NCBI RefSeq assembly: GCF_000023205.1
Contig: NC_012803.1
Coordinates: 2,070,001-2,102,000 of the forward strand
From: Micrococcus luteus NCTC 2665
Lineage (GTDB): Bacteria > Actinomycetota > Actinomycetes > Actinomycetales > Micrococcaceae
Direction of reading: 5' to 3'
Length of the DNA: 32,000 nucleotides
The translations under genes were made by a program, and so were the position numbers. Position 1 is the stretch's first letter, and each line of letters opens with the position of its first letter. The notes under the pieces were generated by a model that saw only the letters and a list, made by a program, of their open reading frames with translations, was not told the origin of the DNA and searched no databases. Of the stretch, positions 15,822-20,678 are shown in pieces.

Positions 15822-16517
15822 TCAGTCCTCCCCGATCCGAACGGCCCGGTCGACGGCCGCGTGGACGAGAGGGTCGTGGCTTGCTACGAGTACCGCTGCC
15901 CCGGCATCGGCGTGCTCGCGCAGCAGAGCGATGGCCTCACGCGCCGTGACGCCGTCGAGGTGACCGGTGGGCTCGTCGGCCACGATCAGCTGCGGTCGCT
16001 TGGAAAGGGCTCGGACGAGGGCCACCCGCTGGGCCTCGCCCCCGGACAGCCGGCAGGCGGGCATGCCGAGCCGGTGCCCCAGTCCGAGCCGCTCGAGCTG
16101 GCCCCGAACCGTCTCCTGCGCCTCGCGCACCGACCCCGCCAGGCGCCCGCCGTGGATCCACACCCCCGCGTTGTCGAGCGCGGAGAGTTCCCCGATGAGT
16201 TCGCAGGACTGGTCCACGTAGCCCAGGTGCTCGCGTCGGTACCGGGCGAGGTCCCCGGCCGAGAGGTCCGCGACCTCCCCCTCCAGGGTTCCGTCGGAGC
16301 TGCGGTAGGCGATCCGCCCGGCCAATGGCCGCGACAGCCCGGCGAGGTGGCGGATCAGGGAGGACTTCCCGGTGCCGGAGCGGCCCCACAGCCCCACGAC
16401 GTCACCGGGCGCGAGGGTCAGGTCCAGGGATTCGATGAGCACGCGAGTAAAGCCGTCGGAGTGGCGGTAGCCGACCTGCACGCGGTCAAGGGTGAGCACG
16501 GGCGCGATCACTCTCAT
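15822..16517 (-). CDS. ABC transporter ATP-binding protein (MacB/LolD-like)
   Basis: Walker A GRSGTGKSS, signature LSGGEAQRVALVRAL and Walker B LIVADEPTGHLD. The ATG at 16517 overlaps the permease stop (ATGA). Confidence 0.9.
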   Translation of the reverse strand: MRVIAPVLTLDRVQVGYRHSDGFTRVLIESLDLTLAPGDVVGLWGRSGTGKSSLIRHLAGLSRPLAGRIAYRSSDGTLEGEVADLSAGDLARYRREHLGYVDQSCELIGELSALDNAGVWIHGGRLAGSVREAQETVRGQLERLGLGHRLGMPACRLSGGEAQRVALVRALSKRPQLIVADEPTGHLDGVTAREAIALLREHADAGAAVLVASHDPLVHAAVDRAVRIGED

Positions 16518-19309
16518 GCGGGCTGCCCCTTCCAGGCGCGGGCGAGCTGGGCTCGCCGGGTGAGCAGGGCGGGCAGGTGCCGCCCCAGCAACCGGGCACG
16601 GGACCAGCCGGCGAGCAGAAGCACGGTGGCCTCCGCCCGGACGGGCGGGCCCTCCACCCGGTGCAGCTGTACCAGGAGGGCCATCCCCACGACGGCGGCC
16701 AACGCCCCTACGGCCAGGCGGTACGGCAGGTCCTGGGCCACGGCGACACCGGCCAGGAGGGAGGCTCCGGCCTCCCGGCGGGCCTGGAGGACGACGGCCA
16801 TGAGCAGTCCAGATCCGACTGCCACGGCCGCGCGGTATGCGGCCCCCGTGAGCAGCCGCGGCCACGTGCGCGCGGTCCACCGGGTCAGCAGCGCGGCGGG
16901 GGTACGAGCCGGCCATGCCGCCCGGTCGCTGCCCTCCCGGACCGCGGCCGCGGCGGGGCGGGCCGCAAGCACTGCGGCGAGCGCCACGGCGGCGGCGAGC
17001 CCTGCCGTCGTCCCGAGGCCCACGGCCACCAGCTGCGGTGCCACGCCGAGGCGCCCGGGCACCGTGCCGACGACGGCGAGCGCGGCCATGGATGCGGCGA
17101 GTACTAGCAGTGTCGGGGCGTCCTCGCGGAGGTGGCGGTTCACGGTGGCGCCACGCGTCCATCCCTGGACGGCGAGCACCCCCGCCCGGCGGCGGCGGGG
17201 CGGCAGCGCAGCTGCCACGCACAGTCCCGCCAGGGCGGTCAGCAGGACCGCCACGGTCATCGTCTGGGAGGTCCCCGAGGTCCCGACGGCCGCCGAGACC
17301 CGCTGGGATGCGGCGAGCTCCGGGCCGAGCTGCCGCACGGTGCCGAGCGGCCCTGTGCGGGGCTCCCCGTCCGTGGAGTCGAACCGGTAGGACACCACCT
17401 GCATCTCGCGCGGCGCCAGGCTGGAGGCGGCCACGGTGGTCGTCGCGAACCCGGCGTCCTGCAGGAGCTGGGCCACGGCGTCGATCGTCGCGAGGTTCTC
17501 GGGGGTCAGGTCCGGGCCCACCTCGGCCACCCGCACGCGGACGGTGCTGAAGGGCCGCTCTAGTCCGAGCGCGCCCGCGGATGCGGCGTCCACGTAGGCG
17601 GCGGACATCTGGTTGGCGAGGCCGAACCCGGTGGAGGCGGGCCGCAGCCGGACGTCCCTCGGCGTTCCGTCGGGGTCCGCGATCAGGGTGGTGGGTAGTT
17701 CCACGTCCGTGAGCAGCGGTGCGATCCCCGCGAGGGCGGCGTCCGGCTCAGGGGTGATCGTGCCCACGCTGACCAACAGCGGTGCATCCCCCGTGCCGAA
17801 CCGGCGGCCGTCATCCGTGGCCGTGTAGTACGCGGACTCCCTGGACGTGGATGCAGGCACCCCTCGGGTGACCTCGACGTCAGACCGGCCGGGGAGCGTG
17901 CCGGAGGCCGTCTCCACGGAGGCGACCTCGGCGAGGATCCTGTCCTCGAAGGGCGGTCGGGCCAGAGTCCGCGTCTCCTGCACCAGGGACAGGCGGGGGG
18001 AGTCATAGCTGAGGATCGGCTCCTGGCCCGTGGCCAGCCCTGGCACGGGTACCACGGTGACTCCGAGCCCGAGGCCGCCGTACCGTCCGGAGACGTCGGA
18101 GGTGGAGACCTCCCCCTGCCCGGAGGCCCCTCCGGCGGGCAGCGCCCACGTCGGCGTCCCGAGGATGCCGCGGGGCGCGGTGGGGTTGTTGGGATCCACC
18201 GGCGCCTGCTCGATGGCCAGTCGCGTCACCGGCTTGGGGTAGGGCGTGGCGCGCACCTCGAGGGACAGGGGCGCGGAGCCCACGCTCGTGGCGAGGAGCG
18301 GAACGGCGGTGAGCGAGTCCGCCGTGCGTCCGGCGTCATCCGCGAGGTTCTGAAGGTAGGCGGGGAGCCGGTCCTTCGCCTCGACGAGCGCGTCCGCCTC
18401 TTCGGTCCCGGCCCCAGCAAGCCGGTCGACAACAGAGGGAAGGGAGGCCGCCGGCGACGCCTGGGCGAGCACGCGGAAGGCGTCGGCAGCGGCCGGGTGC
18501 CCGCCGAGGGACAGCAGCTGCGCCTCGGCAGCCGCGTCCACCACCACCATGCGATTCCCCTGCGGGTCGGGCTCCGCCCATGGGGCGGCCCAGTACGTAC
18601 CCGCCGGGGACTCACGCTGCGCCGCCGGAGGCGTCTCGCCGCGGGGTCCCATGGCCAGGGTGGGGAGCTCGACGTCCGTGCAGGGGCCCGGCTCGGGAGG
18701 AGCTGGATTGCAGACGGCGGGATCGTCCAGCAGCGGACGGGCGTCCGGGATCGGGCCGTGGGAGAAGGAGCCGATGAGCGTGGCATTCATGCCGATCACG
18801 GGGCGGGGTCCGAGACCGTCGTCCGTGCTCACCCTAGCGTCCAGGTCGAACGCGTGGGGACCCTCCACGCTGCCGTCTGCCGGGTACCCGATCATGACGG
18901 CGTCCTGGTTGGTGGTGCTGCGCACGCCGAGATCACCGAGCGGGGCGGCCACCTCGACACCGGGCACCGCCCGGATACGGTCGAGGTCCGCAAGGCTGAG
19001 ACGGTCCGCCGAACTCGTCCACGCGGCGGTGTCCAAGGGCGCCGCCAAGGCTGCCGGGCTCGGGGCGGCGCCCGGCGCGGAAACCACGAGGTCGTAGGAG
19101 CCGCGCCACGAGGAGTCCACCAGATCCCGGAGCCGTCTCGAGGCCTGTGCCTGGACCGCAGTGGCCAGGACGAGAGCCAGGGCGAGGGCTCCGGCCACCA
19201 AACGCAGCATCTGCACGGCAGGGAACGCCGGCCACGCCGGGGTCGACCGGCGAGGGCCATATCCGGCGTTCACACGGCGCGTCATCCGCCGTCGTGATGG
19301 TGGCCTCAT
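16514..19309 (-). CDS. FtsX/MacB-like ABC permease with an N-terminal TM helix, a very large (roughly 600+ aa) extracytoplasmic region and a multi-TM C-terminal domain
   Basis: TM helix MLRLVAGALALALVLATAV, then SLADLDRIRAVPGVEVAAPL (MacB periplasmic-core-like). A late FtsX-type segment reads TMTVAVLLTALAGLCVAAALPPRRRRAGVLAVQGWTRGATVNRHL, followed by further hydrophobic helices. The ATG at 19309 overlaps the lipoprotein stop (ATGA). Confidence 0.8.
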   Translation of the reverse strand: MRPPSRRRMTRRVNAGYGPRRSTPAWPAFPAVQMLRLVAGALALALVLATAVQAQASRRLRDLVDSSWRGSYDLVVSAPGAAPSPAALAAPLDTAAWTSSADRLSLADLDRIRAVPGVEVAAPLGDLGVRSTTNQDAVMIGYPADGSVEGPHAFDLDARVSTDDGLGPRPVIGMNATLIGSFSHGPIPDARPLLDDPAVCNPAPPEPGPCTDVELPTLAMGPRGETPPAAQRESPAGTYWAAPWAEPDPQGNRMVVVDAAAEAQLLSLGGHPAAADAFRVLAQASPAASLPSVVDRLAGAGTEEADALVEAKDRLPAYLQNLADDAGRTADSLTAVPLLATSVGSAPLSLEVRATPYPKPVTRLAIEQAPVDPNNPTAPRGILGTPTWALPAGGASGQGEVSTSDVSGRYGGLGLGVTVVPVPGLATGQEPILSYDSPRLSLVQETRTLARPPFEDRILAEVASVETASGTLPGRSDVEVTRGVPASTSRESAYYTATDDGRRFGTGDAPLLVSVGTITPEPDAALAGIAPLLTDVELPTTLIADPDGTPRDVRLRPASTGFGLANQMSAAYVDAASAGALGLERPFSTVRVRVAEVGPDLTPENLATIDAVAQLLQDAGFATTTVAASSLAPREMQVVSYRFDSTDGEPRTGPLGTVRQLGPELAASQRVSAAVGTSGTSQTMTVAVLLTALAGLCVAAALPPRRRRAGVLAVQGWTRGATVNRHLREDAPTLLVLAASMAALAVVGTVPGRLGVAPQLVAVGLGTTAGLAAAVALAAVLAARPAAAAVREGSDRAAWPARTPAALLTRWTARTWPRLLTGAAYRAAVAVGSGLLMAVVLQARREAGASLLAGVAVAQDLPYRLAVGALAAVVGMALLVQLHRVEGPPVRAEATVLLLAGWSRARLLGRHLPALLTRRAQLARAWKGQPA

Positions 19310-20572: not shown

Positions 20573-20649
20573 GATCTGATCCCTCTCAGAGAACCGTCTG
20601 CGGGGGCCGCGGGCTGCGGTCTCGAGCTCCCCCCCTCTCGAGTGAGATG

Positions 20650-20678
20650 ATCCTGGCTGGGGACGCGTGGCGTGTCAA
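20650..20678 (-). promoter_or_regulatory. Candidate sigma-70-type promoter for the secreted-protein gene: TTGACA - 17 nt - CAGGAT
   Basis: On the minus strand, TTGACA is at 20678-20673 and CAGGAT at 20655-20650, exactly 17 nt apart. This lies about 78 nt upstream of the ATG at 20572. Confidence 0.4.

Follow-up and report, generated by a model that had tools for sequence, protein, structure and literature searches.

The four co-directional minus-strand genes examined here lie on a 32,000-nucleotide stretch of the Micrococcus luteus NCTC 2665 genome (contig NC_012803.1, positions 2,070,001 to 2,102,000; hereafter the window; G+C 74%) and code for a secreted protein (termed sec), a lipoprotein, a large permease and an ATP-binding cassette (ABC) ATPase. 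The interpretation favored here, held tentatively and at somewhat less than even probability, is that the lipoprotein and the permease-ATPase pair constitute a pre-existing accessory envelope machine of the type VII ABC class, and that sec is an orphan, probably membrane-active exoprotein gene that was captured into the leader of this operon. The module would then neither depend on sec nor be obligatory for its producers. As the machine is older than sec and is broken in this strain, it cannot simply be regarded as the antidote of a toxin.

Open reading frames (ORFs) for all four genes were confirmed at the positions given in a preliminary description of the locus: sec (20012..20572; 186 aa, of which ~156 aa form the mature protein), the lipoprotein (19306..19926; 206 aa), the permease (16514..19309; 931 aa in this strain) and the ATPase (15822..16517; 231 aa). 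The last three genes are joined, as described, by ATGA overlaps at both junctions, so that the start of the ATPase gene overlaps the permease stop codon, and the overlap between the permease start and the lipoprotein stop was found in every lineage examined, indicating translational coupling. Because their G+C content at third codon positions (GC3) amounts to 0.79-0.88, the pairwise ratio of nonsynonymous to synonymous substitution rates (dN/dS) stays below 1 (0.14-0.7) and synteny is kept in at least six Micrococcus lineages, the four ORFs are real genes and not chance ORFs. Public sources list their products as hypothetical or ABC proteins of M. luteus (NCTC 2665 records STY68295.1 for sec and STY68297.1 for the permease), and the exact sec sequence is present on 127 public contigs. 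Public gene calls are inconsistent, as the lipoprotein has been called as a 118-aa protein from an internal start (L007, L096, L097) and the permease has been annotated from at least four different start codons (P0208, P0209, P0212). The ATGA-overlapping permease start used here is conserved across lineages. Literature searches on M. luteus together with FtsX and on the M. luteus secretome returned nothing on this locus.

A survey of co-occurrence revealed that the four genes do not form a conserved unit. The permease and ATPase genes were identified in 80 loci of other genera, and both sec and the lipoprotein gene are absent from all 80. Within Micrococcus, five lineages carry sec, and their permeases are at least 69% identical to that of the window (the window with L095, L096, L097 with L007, L001-6 and probably P0013). 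The two most divergent lineages (L009/10 and L011-13) lack sec, including any remnant detectable by tblastn, and keep the lipoprotein, permease and ATPase genes between the same flanking genes. These sec-less lineages branch as sister to all sec-bearing lineages in the rooted permease tree. The order of the components is nested: permease and ATPase are widespread, the lipoprotein was added only in Micrococcus and sec occurs only in one Micrococcus clade. The most parsimonious history suggested by these sequences is that the lipoprotein was gained first, followed by a single gain of sec. A comparison over positions 14121-21923 of the window revealed that HisD and S4 of L011 are 87% and 91% identical to their window counterparts, while the permease reaches only 57% and the ATPase 72%; L097 differs from the window to a similar degree in the flanks and the permease (~76% identity in both). 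Based on the few genes compared, these values hint at an exchange of module haplotypes between Micrococcus species.

The architecture of the upstream region points in the same direction. The secreted protein gene had been credited with its own promoter and an intrinsic terminator. The promoter motif is indeed present at 20650..20688 (minus strand), where a conserved AATGTGATGC-TTGACA (-35 box, 20678-20673) is separated by a 17-nt spacer from the -10-like CAGGAT (20655-20650). However, conservation of the -35 box and its upstream flank extends beyond the window, L001, L096 and L097 to the sec-less L011. Alignment of the 5' leader (20580..20642, minus strand) revealed a conserved CTCGAG palindrome, a C-rich stretch and a ribosome-binding site, and L011 has this leader in common with the window, but directly upstream of the lipoprotein gene. 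The ribosome-binding site GAGAGGGA (20587-20580, minus strand) now serves sec, and its GAGGG is conserved in the L011 leader. Since promoter and leader also precede the lipoprotein gene in a lineage lacking sec, they are, judging from these alignments, the ancestral promoter of the operon and not private to sec. Consequently, sec was placed behind the operon promoter and forms no independent unit. The palindrome itself (CTCGAG-N10-CTCGAG, 20642-20621, minus strand, followed by the C-rich tract) is found in sec-bearing loci and, in altered form, in L011; it could represent an operator or an RNA hairpin, and no Rfam family matches it.

The predicted terminator was likewise found as a motif. Between sec and the lipoprotein gene, a hairpin with 15-nt GC-rich arms and a 5-nt loop is followed by UUUU (19961..19999, minus strand), and the 94-nt intergenic stretch has a folding energy of -45 kcal/mol (z = -4.4). 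Strong hairpins of different sequence occupy the same position in L001 and L007, i.e., the structure is conserved across three species including that of the window. A generic consensus scan for sigma-70 promoters and terminators returned zero sites, as the promoter and hairpin motifs, though present, are below its thresholds. The hairpin would fit an attenuator that sets a high ratio of sec to ABC gene expression.

The permease gene of the window is a deletion allele. Relative to L095 (GCA_008764195.1), a genome that is otherwise 99.85% identical, 129 bp delimited by two copies of the 8-bp repeat CCCTGCTC are missing from the window, and the single remaining copy marks the junction of this in-frame deletion (16562..16569, minus strand). 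The 43 missing amino acids correspond to residues 917-959 of the full-length protein and comprise the C-terminal half of transmembrane helix (TM) 7 and most of TM8, which leaves TM1, the ectodomain, TM2-4 and a truncated second unit (TM5-6). The size of 931 aa first reported is hence that of the allele in this window, but near-identical strains carry a form of 966/974 aa, and an intact 966-aa permease is ascribed to NCTC 2665. The same 43-aa deletion was found in P0212 from an NCBI genome, and at least two further M. luteus genomes have acquired lesions of independent origin in this C-terminal half. In P0215, permease and ATPase have been joined by a deletion, and P0216 has a frameshift near permease residue 744. 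A split gene and a fused gene were also seen in the metagenomic loci L001 and L002, where assembly errors could be the cause. Taken from sequence comparison, these alleles suggest that permease inactivation is recurrent in M. luteus. The sec gene of the window is intact and 99.5% identical to that of L095. Because the permease is disrupted here and independently elsewhere, while sec is intact here, an obligate immunity role of the ABC module is unlikely.

The ATPase was described as MacB/LolD-like, which is borne out by its top NCBIfam matches (LolD, 130.6 bits; MacB, 129.9 bits; FtsE, 126.9 bits); all of these scores are below the equivalog cut-offs and therefore indicate similarity at the level of the subfamily only. 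Walker A, the LSGG signature, Walker B and the H-loop are all intact. Matches of the ATPase in PADLOC reflect generic P-loop similarity.

The permease was more difficult to place. A word-indexed search returned only eight clusters, with Micrococcus as the source wherever one was named. An exhaustive profile search then identified 298 representatives (E <= 1e-3), mostly of 850-1000 aa, that match the N-terminal ~140 and the C-terminal ~420 residues and are variable in the middle of the ectodomain; at least five further relatives were recovered by a second word-indexed search with the family profile. The family comprises ~300 clusters at 50% identity from Actinomycetota and Chloroflexota. The Pfam model FtsX (PF02687) is matched by 33 of 50 relatives, and the relatives P0167-P0169 contain two FtsX stretches each, with 57-64 bits against a cut-off of 25.5. 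Neither the permease nor the 50 relatives match the Pfam models MacB_PCD or FtsX_ECD, and the scan of the 50 relatives revealed no NCBIfam model for the family. In profile searches of the PDB, an alignment restricted to Micrococcus gave no match, and the profile of 50 sequences was needed to detect YtrF (E = 0.0019) as the best sequence match, followed by BceB, PsdB and MacB.

A confident AlphaFold model (pLDDT 81.1, pTM 0.81) was obtained for the full-length allele P0010 with the 50 relatives as input. In this model, the first unit consists of helix 30-67 (TM1 with a long stalk), an ectodomain (68-666), helix 667-700, a short helix (702-714) and helices 719-749 and 758-782, while the second unit is formed by helices 816-847 and 851-885, a short helix (887-899) and helices 904-933 and 939-970. 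The eight TM helices are arranged as two fused 4-TM units with a single ectodomain of ~600 aa and a TM5-TM6 loop of three residues. The layout of a type VII 4-TM unit is recognizable, with the ectodomain placed on stalks between TM1 and TM2 and a coupling helix between TM2 and TM3. The conserved N- and C-terminal segments of the ectodomain exhibit a beta-alpha-beta pattern in the model and may represent Porter-like ends. Whole-chain Foldseek comparison retrieved YbbAP, LolCDE, FtsX (8tzj_C, TMt 0.52, prob 0.96; 8x61_D, TMt 0.56), HrtB (TMt 0.56) and MacB, all at E > 0.05. By transitive homology and predicted structure, the permease accordingly belongs to the type VII (MacB/FtsX-fold) proteins and is best modeled as a fused, asymmetric pseudo-dimer with one ectodomain. 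The initial assignment as an FtsX/MacB-like protein with a giant ectodomain is supported in this way, but the single FtsX-type C-terminus assumed at that time is replaced by two fused units.

Among characterized systems, the closest architectural analogue is the type VII complex YbbAP-TesA of E. coli (PDB 9GE6-9GE8), which exhibits a 2:1:1 stoichiometry and a fused, pseudo-symmetric permease (PMC12646458). In both cases, one permease polypeptide contains the FtsX-type 4-TM unit twice in a pseudo-symmetric arrangement, a LolD/MacB-like ATPase is encoded by a separate gene (two copies per permease in YbbAP, and presumably here), the ectodomain is mounted on stalk helices and an exported partner is encoded next door; YbbP was also among the top fold matches. 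The M. luteus protein is predicted to have eight TM helices and one ectodomain, as opposed to 10 TM helices in YbbP, where TM5-6 form a linker pair and two Porter/Sabre ectodomains are present. Furthermore, TesA similarity is not detectable in the sequences of sec or the lipoprotein, and the host is Gram-positive. The ATPase subfamily and the position of the ectodomain between TM1 and TM2 of an FtsX-type 4-TM unit are shared with MacB, LolCDE and FtsEX. However, those permeases are homo- or heterodimers of 4-TM subunits that each carry an ectodomain, whereas here the dimer is fused and asymmetric and a variable insertion of ~450 aa takes the place of the Sabre subdomain.

The Firmicutes systems BceAB, PsdAB and YtrBCDEF, which protect against envelope-active compounds, also combine an FtsX-fold permease bearing a large extracellular domain with a MacB-like ATPase and supplied the best, albeit weak, PDB sequence matches. 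BceB differs in having 10 TM helices, an ectodomain between TM7 and TM8 and the associated BceRS. The called ORFs of the window, of which only the immediate neighbors were scanned for domains, include no conspicuous sensor kinase or regulator. With its ectodomain between TM1 and TM2 of an 8-TM protein and no two-component system standing out, the locus does not qualify as BceAB-type. Likewise, the parallel drawn at the outset to loci of the lactococcin 972 type is limited to gene order, i.e., a Sec-exported protein gene followed by genes for a large membrane protein and a MacB-like ATPase. A bacteriocin-like layout of the locus, with a structural gene, a hairpin and downstream genes behind one promoter, is supported, but the additional lipoprotein and the existence of the module without sec set it apart. 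None of the defining family models was matched: sec gave no Lactococcin_972 match in Pfam or NCBIfam (E <= 1), the permease is of the 8-TM FtsX type and neither it nor the 50 relatives matched the bacteriocin-associated 7-TM model, and the ATPase scored 123.6 bits against TIGR03608 (L_ocin_972_ABC), far below the cut-off of 254.85. Hence, the machine is a type VII ABC system by transitive homology, outside the lactococcin-972, BceAB and canonical MacB/Lol/FtsEX families.

The second gene was correctly recognized as coding for a lipoprotein, as C29 of its ISGC lipobox is invariant in five orthologues. A low-complexity Ser/Ala/Thr linker connects the lipobox region to a conserved C-terminal domain of ~125 aa with two cysteines and the motifs LCPSDATGKTDI, W.AGSE.LCGDWSA and TVTVDNDRPFR. 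Searches of Pfam, NCBIfam, PADLOC, PHROGs and the PDB gave no match. Homologues were found only in Micrococcus loci and in none of the positions upstream of permease homologues outside this genus. The lipoprotein gene is the fastest evolving of the four (dN/dS 0.31-0.72), with 41% identity of its product in a comparison of two sec-bearing lineages and 47% where only one of the pair bears sec.

The product of the first gene starts with MRMDIKKK followed by a hydrophobic core and a cleavage site (AGA|AP), which together with C46 and C162 agrees with the Sec signal and the two cysteines noted before. Its assignment to no recognizable family, housekeeping or otherwise, also held: Pfam and NCBIfam (E <= 1), PADLOC and PHROGs contain no matching family, and a PDB profile search yielded nothing relevant. 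A word-indexed search of 5.8 billion proteins returned nine clusters, all from Micrococcus wherever a source was named, and metagenome contigs contributed one further locus with 99% identity. The gene was found neither in viral contigs nor, by tblastn, in plasmids, and since PHROGs was empty as well, a phage or plasmid origin is unsupported. Target-site duplications and terminal inverted repeats around sec were not detected. Because G+C and GC3 of sec are lower (GC3 0.80 vs 0.88), its composition fits a foreign origin. At the same time, sec is the most constrained of the four genes, with a dN/dS of 0.14-0.17 indicating strong purifying selection.

Several features of sec resemble the aerolysin/ETX-MTX2 toxins, such as monalysin, CPE, parasporin-2 and the 152-aa Bombina aerolysin-like protein. 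The mature protein is rich in Ser and Thr (25.6%), and its AlphaFold model, poor as it is (pLDDT 47.7), is all-beta with long strands (50-62, 78-91, 120-131, 140-158 and 164-182) and a low-confidence loop (92-119) of ~28 residues. The minimal aerolysin core has been described as five strands with an insertion loop of alternating polar and non-polar residues between b2 and b3 (PMC3110756), and the predicted order in sec (b1, b2, loop, b3, b4, b5) agrees with this core at the stated pLDDT. The highest beta-moments of the protein were located at 92-102 (DITGELSGDVS) and 108-118 (VSAKAGTRVGV) on either side of a hydrophobic tip, AILAG, so that residues 92-118 form a candidate amphipathic beta-hairpin of the alternating type seen in aerolysin insertion loops. 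This paired pattern was reached by 14 of 2000 shuffled sequences, and the segment is the best-conserved stretch of sec among orthologues. Fold neighbors in the PDB are almost all aerolysin/ETX-MTX2-type pore-formers (3kog, monalysin, CPE, parasporin-2, HA70, LSL, Dln1, the Bombina aerolysin-like protein, Cry78 and Cry51), at E-values of 0.017-0.3 and TM-scores of ~0.3; in the viral library, used as a control, unrelated proteins reached similar E-values, but their probabilities and TM-scores were lower. By sequence profile, membership in the aerolysin/ETX-MTX2 group was not indicated, with no Pfam match at E <= 1 and nothing relevant in the PDB profile search, and unlike these toxins sec has no receptor-binding domain and shows no evidence of oligomerization. 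A minimal aerolysin-like pore-former is therefore put forward as a lead rather than a finding, with a little under even odds given the model and sequence features. The bacteriocin-like effector of the preliminary description survives as far as these weak pore-former features are concerned, but no bacteriocin family model was matched.

Two allelic types of sec were found that differ in blocks (P0004, P0006 and P0009 compared to 20012-20572 of the window): VTSNIFKQ vs VSYSAFKQ, IATGRTFG vs IQVNRTYG and, at the C-terminus, YTPWQQFYFQHYRL vs ALPRLAFHFEHSRL. The P0004 protein combines an N-terminus of the window type with the other type downstream, which points to intragenic recombination.

In the mechanism proposed here, the locus is built around a widespread, uncharacterized type VII ABC mechanotransducer in a form specific to this lineage. 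The single 8-TM permease would supply both halves of a transmembrane pseudo-dimer and associate with two LolD/MacB-like ATPase subunits, whose binding and hydrolysis of ATP would move the stalk helices such that the ectodomain performs work outside the membrane. The lipoprotein, added in Micrococcus and translationally coupled, may serve as the extracytoplasmic partner of the ectodomain, and the genomic context suggests accessory envelope protection or handling as the task of the machine. As a later acquisition, sec would have been inserted between the ancestral promoter and leader and the lipoprotein gene, and transcription from the shared start would yield more sec product than ABC proteins. 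Sequence features and the weak model fit are consistent with sec being a minimal aerolysin-type pore-former that acts on other cells. The ABC module would provide auxiliary protection at most.

The same genes could alternatively form a dedicated toxin and self-protection system, in which sec harms its producer and the lipoprotein and ABC proteins remove or neutralize it at the producer's own membrane, comparable to LanI plus LanFEG or to BceAB. In this scenario, the sec-less lineages would carry an orphan resistance that predates the toxin, and the nested distribution is compatible with it, as resistance must precede the toxin. The operon layout, in which one promoter serves a structural gene, an attenuating hairpin, a lipoprotein gene and ABC genes, the pore-former-like features of sec and the divergence of the module, which does not track that of its flanks, as expected for competition loci, all speak for such a function. 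They are opposed by the wide occurrence of the permease-ATPase family without a sec-like gene, the absence of a match to lactococcin-972 or any other bacteriocin or immunity model, the permease disruptions described above with sec intact in this strain, and a lipoprotein that does not co-vary with sec. In addition, large beta-pore-formers usually need no producer immunity. Overall, we regard this explanation as unlikely. What is left of the original toxin and self-protection proposal is the sequence 'resistance first, toxin later', whereas obligate protection is made unlikely by the disrupted permease next to an intact sec. Its most far-reaching form, in which sec is a minimal aerolysin toxin of ~156 aa and the lipoprotein and 8-TM ABC transporter provide an undescribed type of producer protection that strips monomers or prepores from the producer's own membrane by mechanotransmission, with the sec-less Micrococcus lineages as orphan resistance, is conceivable but very unlikely.

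Alternatively, sec and the lipoprotein might both be extracytoplasmic partners or clients, with the ectodomain driving their activity, release or assembly, in parallel to FtsEX-EnvC/PcsB/RipC, LolCDE-LolA and YbbAP-TesA. Type VII systems typically have an extracytoplasmic partner, as exemplified by the 2:1:1 complex of YbbAP with TesA (PMC12646458), small exported proteins are encoded directly upstream of permease homologues in unrelated lineages (a family of ~120 aa in 10 loci, a single-pass membrane protein in Microbacterium and the lipoprotein in Micrococcus), and the lipoprotein and permease genes are translationally coupled. For sec, however, this role is difficult to reconcile with its persistence where the permease is disrupted and with the strong hairpin that separates it from the ABC genes, which argues against stoichiometric co-production; moreover, neither sec nor the lipoprotein contains a recognizable enzymatic or known partner domain, and the three upstream protein families are unrelated in sequence. 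A partnership of this kind is thus considered quite improbable. Little probability is also assigned to the view that sec is an unrelated neighbor, i.e., a surface- or wall-associated structural protein or other exoprotein that merely uses the convenient promoter of a weakly selected operon and has neither a tie to the ABC genes nor toxicity; we judge this to be a distant prospect. The relaxed constraint on the module (dN/dS 0.2-0.45 for the permease and 0.17-0.38 for the ATPase), its repeated disruption, the non-significant fold assignment of sec and its lower GC content, suggestive of foreign origin, would agree with such a chance association. Yet the arrangement has been kept in at least four species-level lineages at a synonymous divergence of ~1 or more, and conservation within sec is highest in the two amphipathic strands that flank the hydrophobic tip.

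The capture of an orphan exoprotein gene by an older envelope machine, which remains the preferred interpretation, faces objections of its own. Conserved operon membership across several species could equally indicate that sec and the ABC proteins truly depend on each other in function. Residual activity of the deletion alleles is conceivable, as is their origin during cultivation. The window permease has no Pfam or NCBIfam match of its own and P0010 likewise lacks a Pfam FtsX match, so FtsX membership was deduced by transitive homology and from a structural model for which every Foldseek E-value exceeds 0.05. For sec, the model is of low quality and the fold matches lack significance, with similar E-values obtained for unrelated proteins from the viral library. 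Finally, the interpretation presupposes co-transcription of sec with the ABC genes and a partial read-through of the hairpin, both of which are putative.

Within the wider permease family, the ATPase gene is adjacent to the permease homologue in most loci. In ~9-11 Microbacteriaceae loci (e.g., L056), the permease-ATPase pair is located between prfB-ftsE-ftsX and smpB. Nine Microbacterium loci, including L020, L024, L031, L032, L037 and L039, carry a gene for an extracytoplasmic function (ECF) sigma factor upstream of the pair, and in the five that were examined (L020, L031, L032, L037, L039) a single-pass membrane protein of ~170-190 aa, possibly an anti-sigma factor, is encoded between the two. 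A different family of exported proteins (~120-135 aa) was found directly upstream of the permease homologue in 10 loci, eight from Chloroflexota and two from actinomycete metagenome-assembled genomes (L038, L047, L051, L072, L076, L084, L089, L090, L081, L086). Its members share the motifs S/TP.TQ.H.H.V.S.W..SW, YGDG, a Cys pair and FTQ.L.V.D, have no significant Pfam match and show no similarity to sec or the Micrococcus lipoprotein; profile-profile comparisons among sec, the lipoprotein, the permease and this upstream family revealed no relationship either. The recurrent adjacency of lineage-specific small exported proteins suggests that the permease family works with such extracytoplasmic partners and is tied to envelope functions.

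The family represents an unnamed, sizeable branch of the MacB/FtsX (type VII) ABC superfamily, and its predicted architecture of eight TM helices in a fused pseudo-dimer with one giant ectodomain is not represented among solved structures. A substrate, once found, would extend the idea of mechanotransmission in Gram-positive envelopes. The locus would be of much greater interest if sec were a pore-former and the ABC module protected against it. M. luteus is a classical indicator organism for bacteriocin and lysozyme assays, and a candidate toxin in the type strain NCTC 2665 is directly testable, with the natural sec-less lineages and the permease-deletion strains as ready-made genetic controls.

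Back-to-back with the operon promoter, the divergent intergenic region contains a SAM-IV (S-adenosylmethionine) riboswitch (RF00634; 69.7 bits, E = 1.4e-10) at 20764-20883 on the plus strand. It is located 73 nt upstream of a flavin-reductase-like gene (20957-21481; Pfam Flavin_Reduct), to which it belongs rather than to the module, and its sequence is conserved in L001 and L011.

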